From an uncultured archaeon (lineage in GTDB: Archaea; Aenigmatarchaeota; Aenigmatarchaeia; QMZP01): 29,048 nucleotides of DNA. Location of the stretch: the NCBI GenBank assembly GCA_964501695.1, contig CAZCTG010000001.1, positions 1 to 29,048 on the forward strand. Reading direction: 5' to 3'. Numbering within the stretch: position 1 is the first letter of the stretch; every line of letters starts with the position of its first letter. Made by a program: the position numbers and the translations under genes. The notes below the pieces were generated by a model. It saw only the letters and a program-made list of their open reading frames with translations. It was not told where the DNA came from and did no database searches. This document shows, one piece after another, positions 1,345-28,955 of the stretch.

Positions 1345-1362
1345 GGGCTTTGCTCCTAAACC
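1345..1362 (+). repeat. Left terminal inverted repeat GGGCTTTGCTCCTAAACC
   Basis: Exact reverse complement of 5133-5150. It resembles the IS903 IR (GGCTTTGTTGAATAAATC, recalled). Confidence 0.93.
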
Positions 1363-1402
1363 CCTAAAATCAAGCCCTCTTTAGGAGCAGAATGGTGAGG
1401 AT

Positions 1403-1630
1403 ATGAATAGAAAACAATTATTAAGGAAAGAAAAAATAATACATTATATGGGTCTGGTCATAAGGGTAGTAGCAAGCACAGTTCCAGCAATATTATCTGT
1501 TTTCTATGGTCTATCAGCTTATCAAAATGTAATTGCTGGAAAGAGTGTTTTATTTGAAAACAATCTTGATATATTATTATTTGTTATCTTCTTACTTTTT
1601 GTTCTTGGTTTGTTTGTGCAGAAAAAATAA
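1403..1630 (+). CDS. Small two-TM membrane protein, transposon passenger (75 aa)
   Basis: SD GGTGAGG just upstream; two hydrophobic segments; AT-rich; overlaps the transposase 3' end by 47 bp on the opposite strand. Confidence 0.7.
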   Translation: MNRKQLLRKEKIIHYMGLVIRVVASTVPAILSVFYGLSAYQNVIAGKSVLFENNLDILLFVIFLLFVLGLFVQKK

Positions 1631-2822
1631 ACTTTGGTGTTATCCCCAATTCCTTCATTTCGTGGATAACGCAAACAATGTTATGCGCTATGAACTTGCA
1701 CAATAGCTCGTTCTTCTGCGCTATGAAGTTCTTGCTTTTCAGCTTGTCGCCGAACTTCATTTTGACAGCTTTGAATGTGCTTTCTATATTGCTTCTTAGA
1801 TGATAATGCGTCATGAAGTCGTCACGATTCATCATGAAGTAATGATACATCTTTGACCATGTGTTTGAGCTATACCATCTAACGGCTGCGTTATGCTTGA
1901 AAGCTATGTATGGGACAGCACCTATGCTATTGACTACTTCGTGATTCTCATTACTTGAATACCCCTTGTCGGCAACAAGCTCTTGGATATTGAATCCGTT
2001 GCCATATGCTTCCAATAACATAGGTTTAAGCAGAGGGCAATCATTTACCCTTTCGCCTGTTATTTTAGCCCCGACTATCACATTTGTCTTTACTCCGATA
2101 AGGGCATGAGCCTTAACCCACCTGTGATGCTTCTCCTTGCCATATTTCTCTATGCCATACTGATTGAATTGGCTTGTTCGGAATCCTGTGCTATCCTGTG
2201 CAAATGTGCTTTCAATGCCACGCAGAGGCATAGCCGACAAGACAAGCAACCTATTCAGAACAAGCGTTATGTCCTCTCGCTGGAGCAGCTTGTTTATGGC
2301 ATTGAAGTTCGGTATTTTCTCTATATCCAACCTATCATGCGCTTTTGAGTATAGGGAATAAGCCCTTCGGCTTGATAGTTGGCTATACACCTTCTCTATG
2401 GCGCAATAGACGCTGTTTCTCATGCCCAATCGTGGCCTGCCTGTTATCTGCGGTAGCTCCGCTATGCTTCCGCAGAGGTCAGCAAGCAGCTTGTCAAAGA
2501 GTATAATCTCGCTTGTTTGGGCTGCATTGTATGAAGCCCATGCCTGCGGATATGTGACCTTCATGGTCTTGGTTATGGTTGTGTTTCCTTCCTCGTCTAT
2601 TTTTCTTTCAACTGTGAACATCACAGCATATTGATGTTTGCAAATGCAACCCCTTGTTTCATAGTCAGGGCAAGTGCAAGCGGTTTTGCCGTTATCTTCA
2701 TAGACAAGATAGCCACCATTCGTGGTTTGCGAGGGGACTATCCAGCCCTTCGGAGTTCTTGTCAACGCCTTTGTTTGGGCTATCTGCAAGCCCTTTATTC
2801 TTCGGTTGTTATTTTCTGTCAT
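1584..2822 (-). CDS. IS5-family DDE transposase with N-terminal SWIM zinc finger
   Basis: SWIM motif CTCPD...CKH. DDE motifs QDSTG, W-x-K-x-H, ND, ADKGY and YHLRSNIE-x-x-F, collinear with IS903-type transposases. Start moved to ATG 2822 (MTENN...), which has SD AGGTGA; the ORF track used GTG 2831. Confidence 0.95.
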   Translation of the reverse strand: MTENNNRRIKGLQIAQTKALTRTPKGWIVPSQTTNGGYLVYEDNGKTACTCPDYETRGCICKHQYAVMFTVERKIDEEGNTTITKTMKVTYPQAWASYNAAQTSEIILFDKLLADLCGSIAELPQITGRPRLGMRNSVYCAIEKVYSQLSSRRAYSLYSKAHDRLDIEKIPNFNAINKLLQREDITLVLNRLLVLSAMPLRGIESTFAQDSTGFRTSQFNQYGIEKYGKEKHHRWVKAHALIGVKTNVIVGAKITGERVNDCPLLKPMLLEAYGNGFNIQELVADKGYSSNENHEVVNSIGAVPYIAFKHNAAVRWYSSNTWSKMYHYFMMNRDDFMTHYHLRSNIESTFKAVKMKFGDKLKSKNFIAQKNELLCKFIAHNIVCVIHEMKELGITPKFIFSAQTNQEQKVRR

Positions 2823-2828
2823 ATCATT

Positions 2829-2911
2829 CACCTATTAATAATTGTTAGTTGTTATTAATAAAGATAACCGATAGCTTTATATATACCTTCATTAATAACC
2901 ATTAATAGGTG
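2829..2911. promoter_or_regulatory. Divergent promoter/operator region between transposase and RHH gene
   Basis: Perfect 11-bp inverted repeat CACCTATTAAT (2829-2839) / ATTAATAGGTG (2901-2911); four ATTAATA copies at 2834, 2854, 2891 and 2901; TTTATATA box at about 2877-2884. Confidence 0.7.
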
Positions 2912-2916
2912 CTAAT

Positions 2917-3057
2917 ATGCCCAAAAAGATGATATTGGAAGCTGATAACGAGCTTTGGAAGGATGTGTTGAAATTCAAGATAGACAAGAACCTCAAGAAC
3001 AACAATGAAGCCGTCATAGAACTGATAAAAATCGGGCTTAAGAAGCACGCAAAATGA
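2917..3057 (+). CDS. Ribbon-helix-helix regulator, 46 aa (not in the ORF track)
   Basis: Manual translation MPKKMILEADNELWKDVLKFKIDKNLKNNNEAVIELIKIGLKKHAK shows a strand-helix-helix pattern; SD AGGTG upstream. It explains the region better than the antisense ORF 2892-3089. Confidence 0.8.
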   Translation: MPKKMILEADNELWKDVLKFKIDKNLKNNNEAVIELIKIGLKKHAK

Positions 3058-3232
3058 GCACGAAATACACTTTTAAGCCTAATCACCAATATTTATACAA
3101 ACCTACAGAAGTTTGGCTGCCAAGTGGGTAAATGGGCGCTCCCAGCTCATGACCTTCTCATCACGCAGAGCGTCCTTAGTTTTTCTTCATTTAGCATGAA
3201 GGTTCCGTCACGCTCTTTTGTAATCCTTTACC

Positions 3233-4018
3233 TCAGGCTTTAACTCCTTCTGTAGATTTGCTTTTCTTTGTTCTTTCTATATCATGTTTTCTTTCCCAAT
3301 CCTCACGCATGGACTTTAGGGCTGCTTCAACCACAGGCCAATCCGAATCGGATTTTATGTCCCATACGAAATCTCTTTCAGGTGTCCCTATAGTTATTTG
3401 ATGCATGGCATCAGGTATTACAATCTTTGGTTTCTTAGTATCCGAACCAGATTCCTTGAGAATTTCTTGCTCTGCCTGTTTTATTGGTTCTGTGCTATCA
3501 ATCACTTTTTTAGCGACGTCTGTCAAAACAACTTTTGCTCCTCTGCCTTTGCCCGTATGCGTTAGGGTGTTAATGTATTCACCATAACTAAAGAATGTTC
3601 CAACCATTCGGTCAAGCAGTATATTTGAGCTTACACTCCCAAAGTTCTCAATGAATTTTACCTTGATGTCTTGCGAATTCGTTTCACCGCCTGAATGAAG
3701 AATCCATTTCACCATGCTGAGATATTCACTCGGAAGATTCCTTATCATTAATATGTTTCGTTTTTCGCCAGATGTTATTGATACCTGTCTGCCCAAATCA
3801 GTCAGATGAATTTTCTTGCTATCAGCATCTATGAAACCGAGATATTTAGCAAGATTCAGCGTATATTTTCTGTTGACGTTCTTCTTCTCGCTTAGGTTAG
3901 ACCAAAGCGTATCAACAAGCATCCCATCCTTCCCTGTATTCTTCAATTCGCTTATCATCTTGTCAAGTAGCCCCATGTTTGTGTTATAGGGCAACATTCC
4001 GCCTTTTTCTTTTTTCAT
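3233..4018 (-). CDS. Tandem winged-helix protein (DUF5343-like), transposon passenger
   Basis: SD AGGTGA; N-terminal PY motif; two wHTH-like wing signatures (AKYLGFIDADSKKIHLTDLG and TLTHTGKGRGAKVVLTDVA); small C-terminal domain after a charged linker. Family name is from recall. Confidence 0.6.
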   Translation of the reverse strand: MKKEKGGMLPYNTNMGLLDKMISELKNTGKDGMLVDTLWSNLSEKKNVNRKYTLNLAKYLGFIDADSKKIHLTDLGRQVSITSGEKRNILMIRNLPSEYLSMVKWILHSGGETNSQDIKVKFIENFGSVSSNILLDRMVGTFFSYGEYINTLTHTGKGRGAKVVLTDVAKKVIDSTEPIKQAEQEILKESGSDTKKPKIVIPDAMHQITIGTPERDFVWDIKSDSDWPVVEAALKSMREDWERKHDIERTKKSKSTEGVKA

Positions 4019-4148
4019 GTAATCACCTAATACTACATTGATTTTAAGCTATAGTTACATAATATGTCAATTTATTTATAAGGATAACGTAAGAAGCTAC
4101 TTTTAAGCTCTTTAAAGATGCTTATAAGTAGCGCAAACAATTGCTTTC

Positions 4149-4325
4149 ATGCCAGAGAAGAAATCCGACTTAAGCAAGACCGAGAGGGTGGGAGTCACAT
4201 TCACGAGGAAGCAGATTGAACTTTTGGACGAAATCGTGGTCGGCGGAAACATAGGCAGTAACAAACCCGAAGTCATAAAGTGGATAGTGATGGAATACTT
4301 AAGGCAGCACGATAAGCTCGGATAA
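4149..4325 (+). CDS. CopG/Arc/MetJ-type ribbon-helix-helix protein, 58 aa (not in the ORF track)
   Basis: MPEKKSDLSKTERVGVTFTRKQIELLDEIVVGGNIGSNKPEVIKWIVMEYLRQHDKLG matches the RHH pattern; TATA-like CTTATAAG at 4121-4128. Confidence 0.88.
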   Translation: MPEKKSDLSKTERVGVTFTRKQIELLDEIVVGGNIGSNKPEVIKWIVMEYLRQHDKLG

Positions 4326-4328
4326 TAT

Positions 4329-4532
4329 TTAATCTTCTTTTTCTGTGACAGCCAATAACAACGCCCTGACATGCGAACCGACTGTTTCTGGTATTGGGTT
4401 TCCATTTGAATCCATTTTCACTTCAGATAGTTGTTTGATTAGCTTTTCGTTATTTGGAAACTTTAACTTTCTATCTTCCATCAATTTTTTTAATTTAAAT
4501 AAACTCTCTTTAAGGTCTATCTCCCTTGTCAT
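4329..4532 (-). CDS. Small hypothetical protein resembling the C-terminal tail of a terminase large-subunit nuclease domain
   Basis: LKKLMEDRKLKFPNNEKLIKQL...GSHVRALLLAV parallels the recalled pattern Lk.l.e.g.l.lP....li.eL...hDD.v.alalA. It has its own TATA (TTTTAAAT on the minus strand) about 25 bp upstream. Confidence 0.55.
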   Translation of the reverse strand: MTREIDLKESLFKLKKLMEDRKLKFPNNEKLIKQLSEVKMDSNGNPIPETVGSHVRALLLAVTEKED

Positions 4533-4579
4533 AACAAGAAAATAGATTGACTATTTAAAAGCATTTTGGACTCAAAACT

Positions 4580-4855
4580 TCATTCTATTAAGCAACCCTT
4601 TTCAAAGCTTTCAAGTTCTTCTAAACCACCATAATAATACACATCATAGCAAGCTCTATAAAACTCATTGTAGATTGCTGGTATATCTTTATCTTCGCCT
4701 GCGCACCAAGTCGCACATTCTTTTATCTTCTGCGATACTTCTAACTTCTGCTGGACATCTTCTCTGTATGAATCATAAGCTGTATTATTGGATGCGCATC
4801 CAGAAATGATTATGACAGCAACAATTCCGATTGGGAGTATCCAGCGAATATCCAT
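4580..4855 (-). CDS. Predicted lipoprotein/secreted small protein, passenger
   Basis: Hydrophobic N-terminus ending in lipobox-like ISGC; four further Cys. Confidence 0.8.
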   Translation of the reverse strand: MDIRWILPIGIVAVIIISGCASNNTAYDSYREDVQQKLEVSQKIKECATWCAGEDKDIPAIYNEFYRACYDVYYYGGLEELESFEKGCLIE

Positions 4856-4875
4856 AAAATCACTGCTTCCAGCTC

Positions 4876-5082
4876 TTATTTAGCTCTCCTAAATGTCAAT
4901 AAAGGATAACCGAAAGAAAAAACACTGCCGACACTGCTTTGCTGAATAAGCTCCCATCCCACACTTGCCATTCTATTCACTGTTTCTTCTGTCCACTCTG
5001 GAACATTTCTTTTGAAACGGTCAAAATACGTCATTTGAACTGTTGTGTATTCGTATTCTATCTTTGGCTTCTTAACAGGCAT
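4876..5082 (-). CDS. DUF4177-like small protein, passenger
   Basis: EYEYTTV...VNRMASVGWELI...LTFRR matches the recalled DUF4177 pattern (EYK.v...LN.lG..GWELV...l.FKR); TATA TTTTTAAG at 5104-5111 (minus). Confidence 0.72.
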   Translation of the reverse strand: MPVKKPKIEYEYTTVQMTYFDRFKRNVPEWTEETVNRMASVGWELIQQSSVGSVFSFGYPLLTFRRAK

Positions 5083-5132
5083 ATCTAAAAGTGAGATTTG
5101 TGGCTTAAAAACGCCTTTAGGAGCAACCTATA

Positions 5133-5150
5133 GGTTTAGGAGCAAAGCCC
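5133..5150 (-). repeat. Right terminal inverted repeat GGTTTAGGAGCAAAGCCC
   Basis: Exact reverse complement of 1345-1362. Confidence 0.93.
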
Positions 5151-5157
5151 TTCAGCT
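5151..5157 (+). repeat. Right target-site duplication (TTCAGCT)
   Basis: Identical to 1338-1344. Confidence 0.85.
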
Positions 5158-5273
5158 TAATATCAGGGCTCTGCGAAATAATTGCCATGTAGAGCCTCTT
5201 GGGGCATGCAGTTCCCCTGCCGGACGTGGCCGGGTTTTTGCCGTAATAAAAGAAGATGTCCGCTTTTCAGGGC

Positions 5274-5585
5274 TCACTCTTCCAGCACAGCCCTATTGTC
5301 GAAGCCGCCAAGCTTCCTTATCTTGTGCTTTCTCATGCTTTCCACAGCCTCGACCGAGATTTTATTGTGCTTCATGTAGGAATTTATGGCCTCCACGATG
5401 TCGACAATCTCATCGACTTCCCTATTCTCGGTTTTCGCCTCTTTCAGCCTGCCGGCGCTTTCCAGAATGCTGTGTTTCAGCGCCTCGATGAACTCCGCAT
5501 CTTCAGCTGCCCTGACCTTGCTGCGCTCCTTCTTCCCGAAGAACATTTTCGGTATCTTGTCCCTTATGAGATGCAGTTTCCCCAT
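5274..5585 (-). CDS. All-alpha NTP pyrophosphohydrolase (MazG superfamily, COG4997-like) with eroded active site
   Basis: L(I/V)RDKIP N-terminus, EIVD (ExxD) and R-K-x-x-x-K-x-GGF...VLE tail. The EExxE position reads ESAGR. Confidence 0.8.
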   Translation of the reverse strand: MGKLHLIRDKIPKMFFGKKERSKVRAAEDAEFIEALKHSILESAGRLKEAKTENREVDEIVDIVEAINSYMKHNKISVEAVESMRKHKIRKLGGFDNRAVLEE

Positions 5586-5672
5586 CCTTTATGTTGCGAA
5601 TTGGACTTAAAAGGGGATTTTGACCTAAAAACTATTTTTCGCCAGCTCCTTGCTGTCAACTGTGGTAGCCTT

Positions 5673-5784
5673 ATAAACAGAGTTTAGTATCTGATTGTAT
5701 GATAAACTGGAGTTTAGTTTAGGTATTAAAACTAAAGTTACTTTATAAATGAGTTATAGTTTATGTAATCTTTATAAACTAAAC
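5673..5784. promoter_or_regulatory. AT-rich repeated palindromic boxes upstream of the Fic gene
   Basis: TAAACAGAGTTTA (5674-5686), TAAACTGGAGTTTA (5703-5716), degenerate TAAATGAGTTATA (5746-5758) and half-site TAAACT (5775-5780). Confidence 0.5.
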
Positions 5785-5815
5785 ATGCTATATATTTAAC
5801 ATAAAAGTGGTTTTC

Positions 5816-7021
5816 ATGCAAGAGAATGAATTCTCAGGAACCAAAACTGGTCGTCTGGTATGGGAACAGAATGGTATGTATTATAGGTTTGAGCCCAACC
5901 CTTTGCCACTTGGTTTCAATCTCACAGCTACGCTCGGGAACCAGCTACTGAATACATCGCATGTCCTGGGACAGTTGGACGGTCTAACCAGCAAGCTATC
6001 GGAAGAAGAAATAAGCCTTCTTAGGCTGCCTTTCATAATGAAAGAGGCGCAACTAAGCTCTGAAATAGAGGGCACAAGATCCACCCTCAGTGATGTTTAC
6101 AAAGGCGAGAAGCAGAAGGAAACAGATGCCCAGAAGGCATTGGATAATGAGGAAATTCAGAACTACGCAGAAGCTCTTGGTTATGGCCTCACCATAGCCA
6201 TGGAGAAAGGGATAACAGAAGAACTGATAAAGAGAATGCATGAAATACTGCTTCGAGGTGTCCGTGGTTCCGACAAGCAGCCTGGAGAATACAAAATCCA
6301 TCAGAATGCCATAGGCAGCAGGCAGGACACCATGGAAAGTGCAAAATTCGTTCCTGCATCCCCGGGAACTACTCCTTCTTTGATGGAGAACCTCATTGAG
6401 TTCCTGAACAATGACAGGACAAGCAACGTCCTTTTCAAGACAGCAGTAAGCCATTATCAGTTCGAGGTCATCCACCCTTTCAGGGATGGCAATGGCCGGC
6501 TTGGAAGGCTGCTCATAATGCTCATGCTTTACAAGGACGGTATACTATCGCAGCCGCTTCTCTACATCAGTGAATATTTCAACAGGAACAGAAGCGCATA
6601 CACGGAATCGTTGTATGATGTGAGCTCTAAAAACAAGGTTGAGGAATGGGTGATGTTTTTCCTAAAGGCCTTGGAAGTTCAGGCCAAGAGTTCCCTGAAA
6701 CTGATACGGGATCTGGAATATTACAAGAGAGAAATGAAAGATGTCATGTGCAAGGTGTCCAGCAGCATAAAGATGGACCAGCTGATAAACCTCCTGTTCA
6801 AGAATCCTTTCATAACCATAACAGACGTTGCTAACGCCCTGGGAATGACCGTGCCCGGGGCCTCCAACCTGGTTCATAAGTTGGAGAGCAGAGATATTCT
6901 TAAGGAAATAACAGGGAAGAAAAAAAGAAAGATTTTTCTGGCTCACATTATTCTGGACATCCTTGAGGGCAGACAGGTTATGAGAAATCACTCGAAGACA
7001 GAGAGTTCTGCATCCAAATAA
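5816..7021 (+). CDS. Fic-family protein with N-terminal autoinhibitory motif and C-terminal wHTH
   Basis: Catalytic HPFRDGNGRLGR; inhibitory SSEIEG; C-terminal ITITDVANALGMTVPGASNLVHKLESRDILKEITG HTH. ATG 5816 is preferred to GTG 5807. Confidence 0.95.
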   Translation: MQENEFSGTKTGRLVWEQNGMYYRFEPNPLPLGFNLTATLGNQLLNTSHVLGQLDGLTSKLSEEEISLLRLPFIMKEAQLSSEIEGTRSTLSDVYKGEKQKETDAQKALDNEEIQNYAEALGYGLTIAMEKGITEELIKRMHEILLRGVRGSDKQPGEYKIHQNAIGSRQDTMESAKFVPASPGTTPSLMENLIEFLNNDRTSNVLFKTAVSHYQFEVIHPFRDGNGRLGRLLIMLMLYKDGILSQPLLYISEYFNRNRSAYTESLYDVSSKNKVEEWVMFFLKALEVQAKSSLKLIRDLEYYKREMKDVMCKVSSSIKMDQLINLLFKNPFITITDVANALGMTVPGASNLVHKLESRDILKEITGKKKRKIFLAHIILDILEGRQVMRNHSKTESSASK

Positions 7022-22858: not shown

Positions 22859-23215
22859 ATGAATAATGCCAGGACATCCGCGCTCATCACCATTGCAATA
22901 ATAGCCATTGCCGTGGCATATTCTGCTGTTTACCTGCTGATGCCGCCAGCAAATAGGTACGACAGCCTTGCAAAATGCCTTGCGGAGGAGGGCACCATAA
23001 TGTACGGCTCGGACACATGCCACGCCTGCGCCTACCAGAAGGAGCTTCTCGGCGGCTCGTTCAAATACGTAAATTACGTCGACTGCGCGCAGCAATACCA
23101 CGTCTGCGTCAGCCAGCGTATAGGCAGCCTCCCTACCTGGCTGATAAACGGCACGTTCCACGTGGGCGTGCAGGCGCCCGAGAACTTGAGCGCGCTGTCA
23201 GGGTGCGCGATTTGA
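22859..23215 (+). CDS. Membrane-anchored small thioredoxin-like protein (CHAC)
   Basis: TM followed by LAKCL...MYGSDTCHACAYQKELLG...YVDC...C...PTWLING...G.Q...L..LSGC, resembling the Trx-like domain of cyanobacterial VKOR-Trx fusions (recalled). Confidence 0.88.
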   Translation: MNNARTSALITIAIIAIAVAYSAVYLLMPPANRYDSLAKCLAEEGTIMYGSDTCHACAYQKELLGGSFKYVNYVDCAQQYHVCVSQRIGSLPTWLINGTFHVGVQAPENLSALSGCAI

Positions 23216-23274
23216 GTTTTTATTTATGTTTCCCTCAACCAAATATTATATTGGTATTTGGTTATCCACCAAAG

Positions 23275-26200
23275 ATGATGATTTTGATGATATCAAATAA
23301 GAAATCTTTATCAATTATAGAAAAAAGAGATTATTTGATTGGAATTTTTTTATTAGGAATATTTATTTCATTCATATCAGTTTCTGTAACTTCATATGAT
23401 TGGTTGGATATTTCAGTCGGAGTGGACTTGGTTAATATCACAGGAGAAAATAATTTCACACATTTGACAATAAATACAGATTCTCCTTTTGATTCTCTGG
23501 TTTTTTATATGCCGTTTGATATTAACACAAGTGAGGCTTATGATTATTCTAACTATGATAATGATGGAACAATAAAAAATAATGCAAGTTATACTAATTC
23601 AGGATTATATGGTGGAGCAATGAGCTTTAATGGGGGTAAGGGATATGTGCAGATAGCCAACAGTCCTTCTATAAACTTAACAGGAAATTTTACAATTTCT
23701 TATTGGGTTAATGAAGCACAAGTGTATGCTTCATATGGGATGATCATAAGTAAACATCTTGCTAAGGGAGGTTATATGGCGCGTACATACAATAATCGTC
23801 ATTATTTTGGTGTTTTTAATTCTTCTGGAACTTATGGAGGTGCTGGAGAATGTTATGCTGTTACTACAAGTGCTGTTGGAATAAATAAATGGGTTCATGT
23901 TGTGGGAGTTTTTAACGGAACTAGTACTATAATATATGTTAACGGTGTTTTAAATAAGACTACAGCATGTCCTGCAGAATTTACTTTTGTAGGAACAACA
24001 TGGGATGTTTATCTTGGTACTTATGCTGAAAATTACTTTTTTTTCAATGGAAGCATTGATGAATTTATGATTTTTAACACAAGTTTAACAAGTGCTCAAA
24101 TATCTTCTATATACAACAATCAAAGCTCAAGATTTGCTGTTAGCGGAACTCAAGCATTTTCTAATCAGTCAAAGATTGACGTTCCAGTTGGAAGCTCTGC
24201 AGTAAATGTAACTTCAAGTCTGCAAAATTTATCTGGTTCAAGTATAAATCTGACAGTTGGGTTCTATAATGGGAGCTGGAGTTATACCTCCCCCCAAATA
24301 TTTACAGGGAGTAATGTTTTCTCAATAGATTCAAGGACGACTAATCTGACTTTTAATTTTACATTCTATGCAGGAAATTCCACAAATCCTTTTTACTCCC
24401 CAATTTTATACGGAAATTTATCTTATTCTTTAATAAAGAATGTCCCTAATATAAGTTTTACAAGCCCAACCCCCTCTTCAAACAGCATTACAAGCAATAT
24501 CTCAATTAATGTTTCAGTTGATTCTGATTTAGATAAATATTCTTTTTTTGACATAGACAATGCTTTGGTTGGTTGGTGGGCAATGGATGACTGGAATTCA
24601 ACAGATATTTTTGATGGTTCTTATTATAATAACTCTGCTAAAATAAATGGTAATTTTGTTCATAGTGTTGGAAGATGGGGGAATGCCATTAAATTAGACG
24701 GAACTACTGCAAATTATCTAAGTGTGAATTGGAGCAATATAGCAAAATTAAATAATTCTGATTTAACTTTTTCTGCTTGGATATATATGAATAATATTGC
24801 TACTTGGAATGGGATTGCCAGTAGTTTAAATTATCAGGACGGGGAATTTACTGGTTTTGAAATTATTTTCAGAAATGTTTCTGCTACTCATAATTATATA
24901 ATTCTAAGAATAGGTAATGGAACTGCTGTTGGTAGTGTTGAATATAGTTCTGTTGATATATCTGCTCTTGCTCCTGAAACTTGGTATCATATTGCTGTTA
25001 CATTTAATAATGATACAAAAAAAATTACATATTATTTAGATGGAGAAAAACTTTTTTGGTATGATTATTCTGGTGATGATATAGTCTTAGCCCCTAGCAA
25101 TATTTTTAAAATAGGTTATAATGCTTATGCTGGAACAGGATTTAATGGCTCAATAGATGATGTTATGCTTTTTTCAAGAGAGTTAAATGAGACAGAAATA
25201 GAAGCAATTTATAATCTTACTACAGATTCTTTTTATAAAAAATTTATTAGGCAAGATTTAGGAAACTATAATATTACTTCTTATGTTGTTGATTATAACG
25301 GAGCAAAAAATTCAACAACTATTACTAATTTAACAGCAATTAATTCTGGACCAGAAATAATAAAATCTGGCTATTCTCACAACAATTATACTCATTACAT
25401 TGCTTTTTCTATTAAAACAGATTATGGGATTTATAATAAATCCAATCTTTATAATAATAGTCAGTTGAATGTCATTTCAGAATATAGAGTTGGTGATGGG
25501 GATTGGGTAAATATCAGTAACAGTTATGGGGAATTTAATTATTCAGAATGGAAAGTTTTTGGTGATAGCATAAGTGAATATTATACTGGAAATCCTACAG
25601 TTTTTGGGTGGTTATATGAGGCAGACAATGTTTTTGATTCTGGGTTTATAAAATATCATACATATACAGATTATGCAACAGGAGGCTATACTTGTTTTCA
25701 GGTTTATAATGATATTTTAACCTATGCAACAAATGATTCAAAAATAACTTTGACCTGCGGAACAAATGATGCATCATCGGGACTTATTTCTACAGACATG
25801 ACTATTGCAAATTACACAGCCATCTTTGATTTTTGCAAAAACCACAATATAAGCATTTATCTTACTAATGTTCCTCCTAGAAATACAAGCGAATTAACAT
25901 TGTCAAAAATAGATACTCTGAATAATTGGTTAGTTAATTATTATAACAGCACCAATAATACAGGGTTTATTGCAGGGTTTTCAGATGTTAATACTCCCTT
26001 GAGAAACAGCACTTCAGGAACAATAAACCTATCCTATTCTAATGATGGAACTCACCCAAATGATAATGGTTCTTTACTCTGGGCAAATACAATCTGGAAT
26101 GAGGGTTTTGAATCTAAAATTTTTGGAGGTCATTATGTTAAATTTAATCCTCCAAGAATTGGAGTATATGATTTTAGATGGAATATTACAGACCCCTCTG

Positions 26201-27597
26201 GAGGAAATACGATTTATACTTTAGATGATGTTTTTAATATAACTTCTGAACATATCCCGCCGCAGATTACAATTAATTCTCCTTTAAATCAGACCTATAA
26301 TGTAATAAACCTTAGTTTTGATATTTCTTCTAATGAAAATTTATCTTTTTGTTTAGTTAGTTTTAATAATTTTTCCACAAATTATACTATGACTTTAAAT
26401 TCAAGTTTGACAGGAGCAAACTATACTAATTCAACAATGCCTCAAGGCTCAAGCACAGCAAAGTTTTGGTGCAATGACACAGCCAATAATATAAATAATA
26501 CAGAGCAGGTTAGTTTTACAATTGACTCAATTGCACCTGATGTTAATGTAACTTATCCTCTTAACATAACTTATAATATTAATGTTTCTGCTTTGAATTA
26601 TACTTCAGACGGAGTTTCGTGTTGGTGGTCTAACAACGGCGGGATATGGAATTCAACTTCTGTAACATGCGGGACAAACTGGACGGGGTTAACAAGCTTA
26701 GAAGGAAGCAATACATGGACTGTTTATGCAAATGATTCTATAGGAAATTTAAATAGTAGTTCTATCACCTTTTTTAAAGATACAATTGCACCCGTAATAT
26801 TCCCCATTTACCCTTCAGATTCTGCATCTTCAACAGAAACGTCATGGACATTTTTATTTAATGTGACTGACAATAACAATGTTAACTGTTCATTAATCTT
26901 AGATAATTCTATTGCCAATTTTAACTCTTCTGTGAATATAAGTGGAGGAACAAATTCTTTTACAAATTCCAGTTCTGTTGGAAGCCATATCTGGAGCATA
27001 AACTGTACTGATTTTATAAATAACAAAGCTAATTCTTCAACAAGAAGTTTTACAATAAGCACTTCTACTGTAAATCTTCCTTCTAGCGGTGGAGGCGGCT
27101 TTCCAGTTTACTCTATAACTTCTAATCAGTTAGAAAATAGTTATTCAGTTTTTTTGGGTGTATCATGGACATTAAAATTTAGAATTAATAACGAGAGCCA
27201 CGAACTAAAAATAGAAAGTATTGATAATGAAAATAAGATAGCTACAATAATAATTTATTCTGAAGAACAAAAAATTACTCTTTTAATAGGACAAGAAGAG
27301 AAATTGGATATAAATAATGATAATTATTATGATATTTATATTAAAGTTAATAATATCACAAGTAGTAAACTTAATCTGACATTAAAAGGTATTCATGAAA
27401 AAATTGGAATAGGAGAAAAACAAGAAGAAAATATTGATATTCCTAGGGATGTTAGTAAAGATACGACTAAAAAGAAAACCGAGAGTTTCTCAAAGAATTA
27501 TTGGACTTTTATCTCACTTGCTTTGGTTGTAATCATATTTTTTAGTGTTGTTCTTATAAACTTGAAGAAAGGGAAAAAGAAAAGAGTCTTAAAATAA
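23275..27597 (+). CDS. Giant surface glycoprotein: two LamG domains, SGNH/GDSL hydrolase, Ig-like repeats and C-terminal TM (about 1440 aa)
   Basis: FNGSIDEFMIFNTSL and FNGSIDDVMLFSREL (LamG); FGDS, GG, GTND and DGTHP (SGNH blocks); PPQITINSP-type Ig repeats; SSGGGG linker; TM plus KKGKKK. True start is ATG 23275/23278/23287; the track's 22975 start runs out of frame through the Trx gene. Confidence 0.9.
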   Translation: MMILMISNKKSLSIIEKRDYLIGIFLLGIFISFISVSVTSYDWLDISVGVDLVNITGENNFTHLTINTDSPFDSLVFYMPFDINTSEAYDYSNYDNDGTIKNNASYTNSGLYGGAMSFNGGKGYVQIANSPSINLTGNFTISYWVNEAQVYASYGMIISKHLAKGGYMARTYNNRHYFGVFNSSGTYGGAGECYAVTTSAVGINKWVHVVGVFNGTSTIIYVNGVLNKTTACPAEFTFVGTTWDVYLGTYAENYFFFNGSIDEFMIFNTSLTSAQISSIYNNQSSRFAVSGTQAFSNQSKIDVPVGSSAVNVTSSLQNLSGSSINLTVGFYNGSWSYTSPQIFTGSNVFSIDSRTTNLTFNFTFYAGNSTNPFYSPILYGNLSYSLIKNVPNISFTSPTPSSNSITSNISINVSVDSDLDKYSFFDIDNALVGWWAMDDWNSTDIFDGSYYNNSAKINGNFVHSVGRWGNAIKLDGTTANYLSVNWSNIAKLNNSDLTFSAWIYMNNIATWNGIASSLNYQDGEFTGFEIIFRNVSATHNYIILRIGNGTAVGSVEYSSVDISALAPETWYHIAVTFNNDTKKITYYLDGEKLFWYDYSGDDIVLAPSNIFKIGYNAYAGTGFNGSIDDVMLFSRELNETEIEAIYNLTTDSFYKKFIRQDLGNYNITSYVVDYNGAKNSTTITNLTAINSGPEIIKSGYSHNNYTHYIAFSIKTDYGIYNKSNLYNNSQLNVISEYRVGDGDWVNISNSYGEFNYSEWKVFGDSISEYYTGNPTVFGWLYEADNVFDSGFIKYHTYTDYATGGYTCFQVYNDILTYATNDSKITLTCGTNDASSGLISTDMTIANYTAIFDFCKNHNISIYLTNVPPRNTSELTLSKIDTLNNWLVNYYNSTNNTGFIAGFSDVNTPLRNSTSGTINLSYSNDGTHPNDNGSLLWANTIWNEGFESKIFGGHYVKFNPPRIGVYDFRWNITDPSGGNTIYTLDDVFNITSEHIPPQITINSPLNQTYNVINLSFDISSNENLSFCLVSFNNFSTNYTMTLNSSLTGANYTNSTMPQGSSTAKFWCNDTANNINNTEQVSFTIDSIAPDVNVTYPLNITYNINVSALNYTSDGVSCWWSNNGGIWNSTSVTCGTNWTGLTSLEGSNTWTVYANDSIGNLNSSSITFFKDTIAPVIFPIYPSDSASSTETSWTFLFNVTDNNNVNCSLILDNSIANFNSSVNISGGTNSFTNSSSVGSHIWSINCTDFINNKANSSTRSFTISTSTVNLPSSGGGGFPVYSITSNQLENSYSVFLGVSWTLKFRINNESHELKIESIDNENKIATIIIYSEEQKITLLIGQEEKLDINNDNYYDIYIKVNNITSSKLNLTLKGIHEKIGIGEKQEENIDIPRDVSKDTTKKKTESFSKNYWTFISLALVVIIFFSVVLINLKKGKKKRVLK

Positions 27598-27601
27598 AAA
27601 A

Positions 27602-27760
27602 GCTGACAGAGGAAATTTTCTTAAAAAGCATTATTCTTTGTCTTGGAGATATATCAAAGAATGCAGGAATTATATTCTTTTTATAATTTTAATTTTTTGT
27701 TAGGAATTGTTTTATCTTTATTTTACCAACCACAAATTATTATTAATGCCATTATAATCC
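27602..27760 (+). pseudogene. Start-less, frameshifted 5' remnant resembling a SpoIIM/DUF95 membrane protein
   Basis: ADRGNFLKKHYSLSWRYIKECRNYILFIILIF, then a frameshift in a T-run into LLGIVLSLFYQPQII; TAG at 27701-27703 in the first frame. Family similarity is from recall. Confidence 0.45.
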
Positions 27761-27887
27761 ATCCGACTTTCTTTGATAAAACCGCGGCTTTAATACCGTC
27801 CTCCTTTTTCATTAAAATTATAGGAAAACTGTGTATATTAGTTCGATGTCACTCATGGAAACATCTTTATAAAAATCAGGTTACGGC

Positions 27888-28955
27888 TTATCCGCAGGTG
27901 CCACCCGAAGAATCGCCTGAAGCTGTGCCATACCCAAAGCCTGTCGATGGCTGGGCGCTTGAAAGTTGCATGCTGCACTCCGAAGGTTCTGCAGTGAAGG
28001 CGCTGCATATGGCGCTGAGCATTGATGCCGAATCCCTGCTGGTTTGCACGGTCTGTCCGTTTATAACAAGCGTCGGGCTGCCGCCGATGCCGTATTTCTC
28101 GTTGTCCGCCTTGTTGACGTCGAAAAGGGGATAATATCCGCTTAGCCAAGAATCCTTGTCGTTGAGGTTCTCTGTTATCGAGAACTCGGCGTCAGCCGCC
28201 GCCACGCATGAATTGAGCTTGGCTGTGTCTATGGCTGCTTCCACGAGACATTGCTCCGGATTGCCGCTGCCAAGGAAGCAGTTGAGGTATGGCAGGTATT
28301 TAGTACCCTGCTCCTTTTGTATGCAGTATTGCCTTGTTTCTTCGTCAATCTCCGTTTTGCCGTGCATCGCGTAATAAACGAACTTTATGGAAAAATCAAT
28401 CTTATCCTCGAGAAGCTCGACGGCCGGGATTATTCCCTTTTCCGCCTGGGTGCCGTATGGGCAATGGGACATCACGAACAGCTCCACCACAGGCCTGTCG
28501 CTCTTCGGGATTCCAGTCGAAGCCGCCGGCTCTCCGCTTGTGTCGGCAGGAAGCTGCTCATTCAGGTCTCCTATGCCGCTGAGTATGTAGTTGCCGTCCT
28601 TTGTCGCATAATAAGGAACCACCTGCGTCTGGCCATTGTACGTTATCTTCGCATCAACCTCATAGATTCCCGAGATGTTTTCAAAATTGCCGACACCTGC
28701 AAGCTCGACCTGGATGCCAGGGTAGCCCATGCTCAGCCTGCTCTGCAGGAAGTCCACGACCTTGGCCCCGACGGCCTGCGAGCCTGAATCAGCAACAATG
28801 CCGCCCGTTATGGAACCCCCTGCGAAGTATCCGACCGCCAGGCAGACTATAGCGACAACCGCCATGTAAATAGGAGCCATGTTCCTTGGCTTGCCCGGCT
28901 TGTCAGAAGCAACGGCTTCAGCCTTCCCGGCGTTTTTTTCCTCTTCAGCAGGCAT
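27888..28955 (-). CDS. Membrane-anchored DsbA-like thioredoxin-fold protein (CPYG)
   Basis: TM helix; VELFVMSHCPYG; GSPTLVING cis-Pro loop; several Cys pairs. ATG 28955 (MPAEEEK) preferred to the track's 28997. Confidence 0.88.
   Translation of the reverse strand: MPAEEEKNAGKAEAVASDKPGKPRNMAPIYMAVVAIVCLAVGYFAGGSITGGIVADSGSQAVGAKVVDFLQSRLSMGYPGIQVELAGVGNFENISGIYEVDAKITYNGQTQVVPYYATKDGNYILSGIGDLNEQLPADTSGEPAASTGIPKSDRPVVELFVMSHCPYGTQAEKGIIPAVELLEDKIDFSIKFVYYAMHGKTEIDEETRQYCIQKEQGTKYLPYLNCFLGSGNPEQCLVEAAIDTAKLNSCVAAADAEFSITENLNDKDSWLSGYYPLFDVNKADNEKYGIGGSPTLVINGQTVQTSRDSASMLSAICSAFTAEPSECSMQLSSAQPSTGFGYGTASGDSSGGTCG

Follow-up and report, generated by a model that had tools for sequence, protein, structure and literature searches.

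A cargo-carrying, probably IS903-related transposon with a SWIM-finger transposase in an uncultured archaeon

The locus and its element

The stretch of DNA analysed here (the window: 29,048 nucleotides, positions 1 to 29,048 of contig CAZCTG010000001.1, assembly GCA_964501695.1) comes from an uncultured archaeon of the Aenigmatarchaeota and carries, at 1346-5149, a 3804-bp element that runs from GGCTTTG to CAAAGCC. This element (the C1 copy, the window being contig 1 of a source assembly of 786 kb in 94 contigs that is 84% complete) is very probably a complete DNA transposon with a single transposase, related to the IS903 group of the IS5 family of insertion sequences (ISs). It contains one intact open reading frame (ORF) for a transposase with SWIM and DDE_Tnp_1 domains and seven other ORFs of 46-261 amino acids (aa), all of them present as a preliminary description of this DNA had listed them. 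As was also described there, the transposase touches neither end (on the left, its stop codon lies 238 bp from the end of the element) and both terminal ORFs point inward. The ends, the transposase and the parts that accompany it are the following:

1337-1345, no strand: left target-site duplication, CTTCAGCTG, matching 5150-5158 at 8/9 positions under the 9-bp rule of the family
1346-1362, plus strand: transposase-proximal terminal inverted repeat, GGCTTTGCTCCTAAACC, a perfect 17-nt complement of 5133-5149
1379-1389, plus strand: subterminal repeat of the end core, inverted with respect to the terminal site, at position 34 of the end
1584-2831, minus strand: transposase of 412-415 aa (probable start ATG at 2822), with an N-terminal SWIM zinc finger and an IS5-type DDE domain
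2823-2916, no strand: divergent control region between the transposase and ribbon-helix-helix (RHH) genes, a palindrome with ATTAATAGGTG ahead of each start
2917-3057, plus strand: DNA-binding protein of 46 aa, RHH-like (CopG-type), that probably regulates the transposase
3058-3232, no strand: conserved non-coding stretch that closes the core module, ~88% identical to the C38 copy (see below)
5115-5125, minus strand: subterminal repeat of the end core, in direct orientation with respect to the terminal site, at position 25 of the end
5133-5149, minus strand: distal (cargo-side) terminal inverted repeat, the complement of 1346-1362
5150-5158, no strand: right target-site duplication, CTTCAGCTT, matching the left copy at 8/9 positions

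The perfect 18-nt inverted repeat pair that was originally reported is present at 1345-1362 and 5133-5150 (by simple arithmetic, ~1.5e-4 such pairs would be expected by chance in 4.6 kb), with TTCAGCT on either side of the element. Comparison with the family shifts the boundary one base inward, to 17-nt ends and a target duplication of 9 bp. Of the 7-bp duplication first proposed, the existence of a flanking duplication therefore stood and the length did not, the 7 bp lying inside the 9. Genome-wide, the motif TTTAGGAGCA is restricted to the ends of the C1 and C38 elements, and no internal end-like sequence was found in the window element with up to 4 mismatches allowed. The GC content of the element is 0.39, compared to 0.49 in the rest of the contig and 0.52 in the genome. 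The mosaic composition that had been claimed is correct for the transposase, which has the highest GC (0.44-0.48), but not for the supposedly GC-rich RHH gene, as the region around it is AT-rich (0.36).

Sister elements in the same genome

Related transposases are found at five places in the genome (with identities of 80, 63, 62 and 40%), and the five elements to which they belong measure 2.8-6.2 kb and together 21.3 kb, or 2.7% of the assembly. Each element starts with GGCTTTG (one tip being GACTTTG and one AGCTTTG), ends with the complement and has 9-bp direct repeats outside, which are perfect for C38:2288-5044 (2757 bp), C30:3080-6886 (3807 bp), C7:5939-10704 (4766 bp) and C9:1960-8168 (6209 bp). 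When all 94 contigs were scanned blindly for the combination of RGCTTTG tips, an inverted repeat of 16 nt and a duplication of 9 bp, these five elements alone came back, each of them with a transposase. Searching for other copies by their ends and comparing their cargo, both of which the preliminary description had put forward, thus led to five elements, the cargo of which differs in every case.

The comparison with C38 is the most instructive. The two copies have the proximal end, the transposase (81% nt and 80% aa identity), the intergenic region, the 46-aa gene and the 175-bp non-coding tail in common, after which the homology runs precisely to the stop codon of the following gene, breaks off there and comes back only in the last 35 bp. 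Between the core and the distal tip, C38 has one unrelated gene of 297 aa, where six ORFs are stated for the window element, and no sequence similarity exists between the 297-aa gene and the 261-aa gene that takes the same place in the window. On the other side of the transposase, a 260-bp segment with a 75-aa ORF is swapped for 26 bp in C38.

The other three elements are loaded differently. The 6209-bp element on C9 (L016) contains, at 2043-6744, a GmrSD-N and HNH protein, two adjacent N6_N4 DNA methyltransferases, a zinc-ribbon gene and two unknown genes, which by their sequences are probably a restriction-modification (R-M) system plus a modification-dependent nuclease. In the 4766-bp element on C7 (L017), a DUF488 / dual-OB pair at C7:8144-9708 corresponds to both proteins of PDC-M19 (1.5e-39 and 8.7e-70), a candidate defence system of PADLOC. 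The cargo of the C30 element consists of an NYN-domain protein and an AN1 zinc finger. In the transposase tree, four of the five transposases group as a single clade (local support 99%), which indicates that they diversified together while their cargo changed.

The family in archaea and bacteria

Relatives of the transposase number thousands in metagenomes, where their only public name is 'transposase', and they occupy at least 553 loci in species-representative genomes. With a seeded inverted-repeat finder, both ends could be placed for 52 archaeal and bacterial elements. Lax criteria gave 65 candidates at 50 loci, compared to 18 candidates at 11 loci in a control with reversed, uncomplemented ends; the RGCTTTG tip appeared in 45 of the 50 best candidates without having been imposed. 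The assignment of family ends rests on this tip and on the whole-genome scan, which had zero false positives.

Perfect 9-bp duplications flank 50 of the 52 delimited elements. The consensus of the tips is GGCTTTGC(A/T)C-T-AAAG, and the GGCTTTG tip is common to 104 family ends. Sizes range from 1.5 to 11.6 kb (median 4.5 kb), and 51 of the 52 lie between 2.4 and 11.6 kb, the sole simple IS being the one of 1.5 kb. This contradicts the case that had been named as refuting the description of the window element, namely that its transposase would always be found in elements of ~1.4 kb. In fact, together with the genome scan and the differing cargo, these sizes support the original idea of an IS903-like gene mover with a single transposase. 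In 51 of the 52 elements the GC content is below that of the flanks, whatever the GC content of the host (0.27-0.70).

By record label, the archaeal hosts are DPANN archaea, Hadarchaeota, Bathyarchaeia and methanogens (Methanothrix, Methanoregulaceae, Methanocellaceae and Methanoperedens), while a separate clade in the transposase tree spans many bacterial phyla. The attribution to DPANN-type archaea holds for the host of the window, but the family is not confined to them. Two transposases from metagenome-assembled genomes labelled Desulfobacteria and Acidiferrales (L046 and L102) nest within the archaeal clade, which reflects either mis-binned contigs or inter-domain transfer. Sister transposases that lack the SWIM part occur in similar cargo elements (L033, L034 and L137).

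Judged by sequence matches, the cargo of the family appears to be mostly R-M and other defence genes. Type I / IIG R-M enzymes (HSDR_N + N6_Mtase + Eco57I) are found in ten elements, and further recurrent cargo comprises specificity subunits, an EcoRI-type methylase with GmrSD/HNH, Dcm with Vsr, Dam, and NYN proteins.

The transposase and the core module

The transposase matches the Pfam families DDE_Tnp_1 (3e-23) and SWIM (21.7 bits, cutoff 19.6). Its top NCBIfam model is transpos_IS5_2, with 118.2 bits under a cutoff of 140. Residues D213, D288 and E350, as well as the Y-2-R-3-E-6-K signature (Y343-R346-E350-K357), are invariant among relatives, and the zinc ligands of the SWIM part (C52, C54, C64 and H66; CxCxnCxH) are invariant across 41 sequences. 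Between the C1 and C38 genes, the ratio of nonsynonymous to synonymous change (dN/dS) is 0.17 at a dS of 0.74, from which it follows that both transposases have been kept under purifying selection. No relative in the PDB could be detected by sequence search. In an AlphaFold 2 (AF2) model (pLDDT 76.6), the protein is predicted to consist of a small N-terminal domain of strands plus helix (residues 24-74, the SWIM region), a disordered linker, a helical region and an RNase-H-like core.

The conserved core of the element is formed by the proximal end, the transposase, the regulator and the 175-bp non-coding tail. Conservation is strongest in the middle of this module: the control region at 2823-2916 has 1 difference in 94 bp with respect to the C38 copy, whereas the transposase genes are only 81% identical at the nucleotide level, and the 46-aa RHH-like protein is 100% identical in C38, its gene having 7 synonymous changes (dN 0, dS 0.35). 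The protein itself has neither a significant Pfam match nor a sequence match in the PDB; its positional equivalents in other elements, with which it aligns, match RHH_1 (1e-3), RHH_6 (7e-5) and CopG (0.017), all below cutoff. From its sequence and position, it probably regulates the transposase. A role as repressor of both divergent promoters would fit the extreme conservation and the palindromic control region.

Such an arrangement is common in the family. A small divergent gene lies directly upstream of the transposase in 38 of 49 family elements, separated from it by a gap of ~80-170 bp, and the DNA-binding folds found in this position vary: zinc ribbon (12 elements), RHH-like, AbrB/MazE-like, winged helix and XRE. 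The 46-aa gene of the window occupies this divergent DNA-binding slot.

The stretch at 3058-3232 must be non-coding, since three 1-nt indels relative to C38 rule out a coding function. It folds no better than shuffled sequences, and no Rfam match was found anywhere in the window. Within it, after the RHH gene, a hairpin (GGGCGCTC...GAGCGTCC, ~3134-3175) followed by a T-run is kept in C38 with G.U to A-U and U-A to U.G changes, and is possibly a terminator.

Taken together, a working scheme for the element can be proposed. The transposase would bind the terminal and subterminal sites, and its DDE/YREK site would, by analogy with IS903, cut and join the ends. Transposition of IS903 is cut-and-paste and occasionally replicative. 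The RHH-like protein would act on the palindrome between the two genes and so repress both divergent promoters. The core is flanked by two cargo bays, the contents of which are exchanged between related elements.

Cargo of the window element

Outside the core, the element carries six ORFs:

1403-1630, plus strand: 75-aa ORF, a predicted small membrane protein (coding unproven), with a 47-bp overlap with the 3' end of the transposase gene
3233-4018, minus strand: 261-aa winged-helix-like protein (AAA_assoc_C / DUF5343-like, Pfam matches sub-threshold), cargo or accessory
4149-4325, plus strand: 58-aa second RHH-like ORF, divergent from the 261-aa gene, by sequence pattern only (no Pfam or PADLOC match)
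4329-4532, minus strand: 67-aa ORF with no significant family match
4580-4855, minus strand: 91-aa predicted lipoprotein from the ORF list (signal peptide, lipobox ...SGC)
4876-5082, minus strand: 68-aa ORF, weakly DUF4177-like (Pfam 22.9 bits, cutoff 25)

The 75-aa ORF has no Pfam or PADLOC match above cutoff, and no ORF of the element has a PADLOC defence match. The five small ORFs, which are putative genes, lack informative relatives. The first 32 aa of the lipoprotein are 44% identical to a lipoprotein ORF of the C30 element. The window copy is a cargo-poor, slightly atypical member of the family, with no recognisable defence cargo.

The 261-aa protein (atlas lead score 0.93) deserves separate attention. 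It represents a real family, with ~43 representative clusters at full length. Homologues in L135 and L137 (the latter a 5487-bp member of the transposon family that also has a Tsp45I-type R-M system) are placed likewise: each converges on a small RHH gene beside an IS5-type transposase. Another homologue, at L138:1013-3488, lies directly upstream of a transposase of the IS6 family (DDE_Tnp_IS240). Proteins of this family may accompany transposases in general, and because the homologues recur beside them, the 261-aa gene may, judging from sequence context, have an accessory function rather than be a plain passenger. When the other 51 delimited elements were searched with a profile of the protein family, no member came up.

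Whether the extra genes are passengers at all can be questioned. They could instead be the element's own functions (regulation, maintenance or target choice), in which case it would be a complex transposon rather than a vehicle that captures genes. The RHH-like gene and its control region are indeed better conserved than the transposase, the slot upstream of the transposase is taken by a small DNA-binding gene in 38 of 49 relatives, and the 261-aa homologues stand beside RHH genes and IS5-type transposases in two elements and beside an IS6-type transposase in one. This alternative is nevertheless considered rather unlikely, since the C38 sister does without all six other ORFs and has the unrelated 297-aa gene instead, the 261-aa profile is absent from the other 51 elements, and the cargo of relatives is clearly accessory (R-M systems, GmrSD, NYN and PDC-M19). 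The preliminary description had regarded all seven ORFs as passengers, and this is partly upheld: the 46-aa RHH-like gene belongs to the core, and the 261-aa gene, recurring beside transposases, is not a clear passenger either. The analysis demonstrates that the mobile unit comprises everything between the ends, i.e. the transposase, the RHH-like gene, the 261-aa gene and the five small ORFs.

End architecture and target choice

Taking end positions 6-16 as the end core (11 nt), subterminal copies were counted in the 52 elements. At the end on the side of the transposase C-terminus, the copies are inverted and lie at positions 33 and 53 (42 of 52 elements); at the cargo end, they are direct and lie at positions 24 and 44 (43 of 52). 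Control windows inside the elements gave 1/52 for each orientation, and two classical IS903-type ISs that were examined have no subterminal repeats. Asymmetric ends with multiple sites are familiar from Tn7 and Mu, not from simple ISs.

The archaeal members also appear to select their targets. In 26 of 37 archaeal insertions, an octamer that matches TTTAWAWA in at least 7 of 8 positions is present and reads away from the element, and in 23 of those 26 it starts exactly 6 bp from the duplication (a control at offsets of 30-34 from the duplication gave 3/37). The hexamer that separates the TATA box from the duplication is in many cases rich in purines, as would be expected of a transcription factor B recognition element (BRE). 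None of the 15 bacterial insertions shows this arrangement. Within the genome of the window, C7 and C9 obey the spacing rule, C38 does so weakly and C30 does not. The window element itself sits between the 3' ends of two convergent genes.

Integrity and mobility of the window copy

Several observations weigh against reading the window element as a complete transposon with cargo. No empty site (...GAGGGA-CTTCAGCT(G/T)-AATATC...), for which the preliminary description had suggested looking, was found with both flanks in 40 related genomes or in the contigs of the source run, the latter being assembled contigs in which rare excision products cannot appear. There is also no identical second copy and no second context, because of which recent movement of this copy is not demonstrated. 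Its 9-bp duplication has one mismatch. It has, like its C38 sister, one subterminal copy per end, compared to two in most relatives, so that it may be old or weakened. No TATA box is present at its insertion site, where the best octamer match is 5/8. Several of its small ORFs lack a homologue, so perhaps not all of them are genes. Finally, all data derive from metagenome-assembled genomes and are sequence only.

Some of these points would agree with a different status, in which the window copy was once a transposon but is now an immobile relic, fixed in its lineage: the mismatch, the single subterminal repeats, the lack of a second identical copy and the lack of polymorphism in the source-run contigs. 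Even so, a relic seems rather improbable. The ORF of the transposase is unbroken and retains every catalytic and zinc-binding residue, its dN/dS is 0.17, the inverted ends are perfect over 17 nt, and the C38 sister has the same reduced ends yet a perfect duplication.

The restriction of C1/C38 homology to the core and the tips could be taken to mean that only a simple IS of ~1.9 kb (transposase and RHH gene) is present beside unrelated genes, with the outer repeat being coincidental or the remnant of a second IS in a composite. This reading is very hard to maintain and is largely refuted: no inner ends are present, the direct subterminal repeat that is specific to the family is found at the right tip, it is the outer ends that the duplication encloses, and the whole-unit structure recurs in 51 of 52 relatives. 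An assembly chimera of C1 and C38 halves, conceivable in view of the stretches of 81-98% identity between the copies at which the Logan unitigs break, is the least credible option of all, given the even depth, the junctions crossed without a mismatch and the matching pair of duplications that each copy has to itself, by which an exchange of halves between the two is excluded. Independent Logan contigs of the source run span the left (600-1698) and right (4508-5900) junctions with zero mismatches; the depth is 8-9, equal in the flanks and the element, and the remaining loose ends of these contigs could all be assigned to the C38 copy.

The window element can therefore best be read as a complete transposon, and relatives give an indication that such elements move. 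A 4853-bp relative (P0009; L042 whole, and L041:7547-12399), which begins with GGCTTTG and carries a PemK-like toxin gene, appears as a tip-to-tip contig in five samples, and a 36-kb contig stops exactly at its end. A stand-alone contig is the assembler output that is expected when a unit has more than one context, and these observations suggest several contexts, i.e. recent movement. Another relative, of 7715 bp and with an Eco57I-like enzyme, is found at one site in several samples.

Around the element, the window from 1 to 9 kb gives the impression of a variable accessory region, and nothing corresponding to its flanks was found in the 40 relatives. To the left lie tandem ORFs (1-462 and 502-1239) with PEP-CTERM-like tails (VPEPATIAILGLGGLLLRRKRFA and IPEPATVILLGLGSIALLPRGRQK), in a contig that is otherwise archaeal, and just to the right of the transposon lies a 404-aa ORF (5807-7021) with the Fic motif HPFRDGNGRLGR. 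A second, far more AT-rich island is present at 23200-28000 (GC 0.24-0.37, compared to ~0.55 around it).

Relation to known systems

In a tblastn search of the transposase against 72,556 plasmids, matches reached the DDE part only (residues 98-397, 22-26% identity to IS5-family transposases), and the SWIM part was not covered by any match. One match, on a Klebsiella plasmid, belongs to a 1052-bp IS with ends GGCTTTGTTGCA(C/T)AAATC and a perfect 9-bp duplication. With the classical IS903 group, the window element has in common the GGCTTTG tip (the classical member having GGCTTTGTTGCACAAATC ends), the 9-bp duplication and a DDE_Tnp_1-type transposase with the YREK signature. The differences are considerable: the window transposase has ~90 additional N-terminal residues with the SWIM zinc finger, and members of the IS903 group are simple ISs of ~0.95-1.15 kb with the transposase as the only gene, compared to 3804 bp and seven additional ORFs in the window and to 2.4-11.6 kb with cargo and a divergent regulator gene in the SWIM family. 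Likewise, the SWIM family has two phased subterminal repeats per end, the orientation of which differs between the ends. In the tree, the classical group is on a very long branch from the window family, and the NCBIfam IS5 score of the window transposase lies under the cutoff.

IS-like elements with passenger genes are known as transporter ISs (tISs) or unit transposons, a concept of the ISfinder authors. The window element resembles them in having one transposase, passengers inside one pair of ends and a duplication outside the unit. However, the tISs that have been described occur sporadically within families of simple ISs, whereas here cargo is the rule of a clade (51/52). No tIS of the IS903 group was found in the literature searched.

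Eukaryotic Mutator-like elements (MULEs) also combine a DDE transposase with a SWIM zinc finger and a 9-bp duplication. Their catalytic domains are IS256-like, not IS5-like, and the SWIM part is C-terminal to them, whereas in the window transposase it is N-terminal and the catalytic domain is DDE_Tnp_1, the sole transposase domain matched in Pfam (a MULE-domain match is absent).

Tn7-like elements (cargo survey in PMC8649781; archaeal members in a preprint, bioRxiv 10.1101/2025.07.27.667033) are similar as vehicles of defence genes with asymmetric ends, several transposase-binding sites and controlled target choice. Tn7, however, uses TnsA/B/C with a target selector and makes a 5-bp duplication, whereas the window element has a single IS5-type transposase, and TnsA, TnsB, TnsC and TniQ are absent among its ORFs. 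Other archaeal integrating elements that carry cargo are casposons and aloposons (PMC6563490, PMC8813620). Casposons are likewise archaeal cargo carriers with inverted ends and target duplications, but they use a Cas1 integrase and PolB instead of a DDE IS5-type transposase. Aloposons integrate at tRNA genes, encode giant proteins and also have no such transposase; they are unrelated, and an identity of the window family with them was rejected.

No description of SWIM-DDE cargo transposons of the IS5 type was found in the literature, a comparison that did not extend to the entries of ISfinder. The window element, then, is an IS903-related cargo transposon with an added domain, regulator, end architecture and cargo bays.

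Significance

According to a 2019 survey of archaeal mobile elements, no passenger-carrying DNA transposons had until then been detected in archaea (PMC6563490), and later additions for archaea comprise only aloposons and Tn7-like elements (PMC8813620; bioRxiv 10.1101/2025.07.27.667033). With modest confidence, the elements described here can be regarded as one distinct and still unnamed transposon family, the lack of a name being what the preliminary description had thought possible, that arose from IS903-like ancestors and is present in both archaea and bacteria. Such a family would be characterised by a SWIM-DDE transposase (or its SWIM-less sister form), a divergent small repressor, three-site ends of opposite repeat orientation and obligate cargo bays. 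It would be a major vehicle of R-M and defence genes in DPANN archaea, methanogens and soil bacteria, with its archaeal members targeting the upstream edge of BRE/TATA promoters.

The interest rests with the family, to which the window copy adds little, being one more, somewhat atypical member. What the family offers is a widespread transposon of a simple, one-protein kind with 1-10 kb of cargo as its routine load, and with it a concrete route by which R-M and other defence genes could spread in DPANN archaea and methanogens. The exact distance of 6 bp to the TATA box provides a testable case of promoter-edge targeting, and a single-protein system that tolerates cargo could become a genetic tool for archaea.

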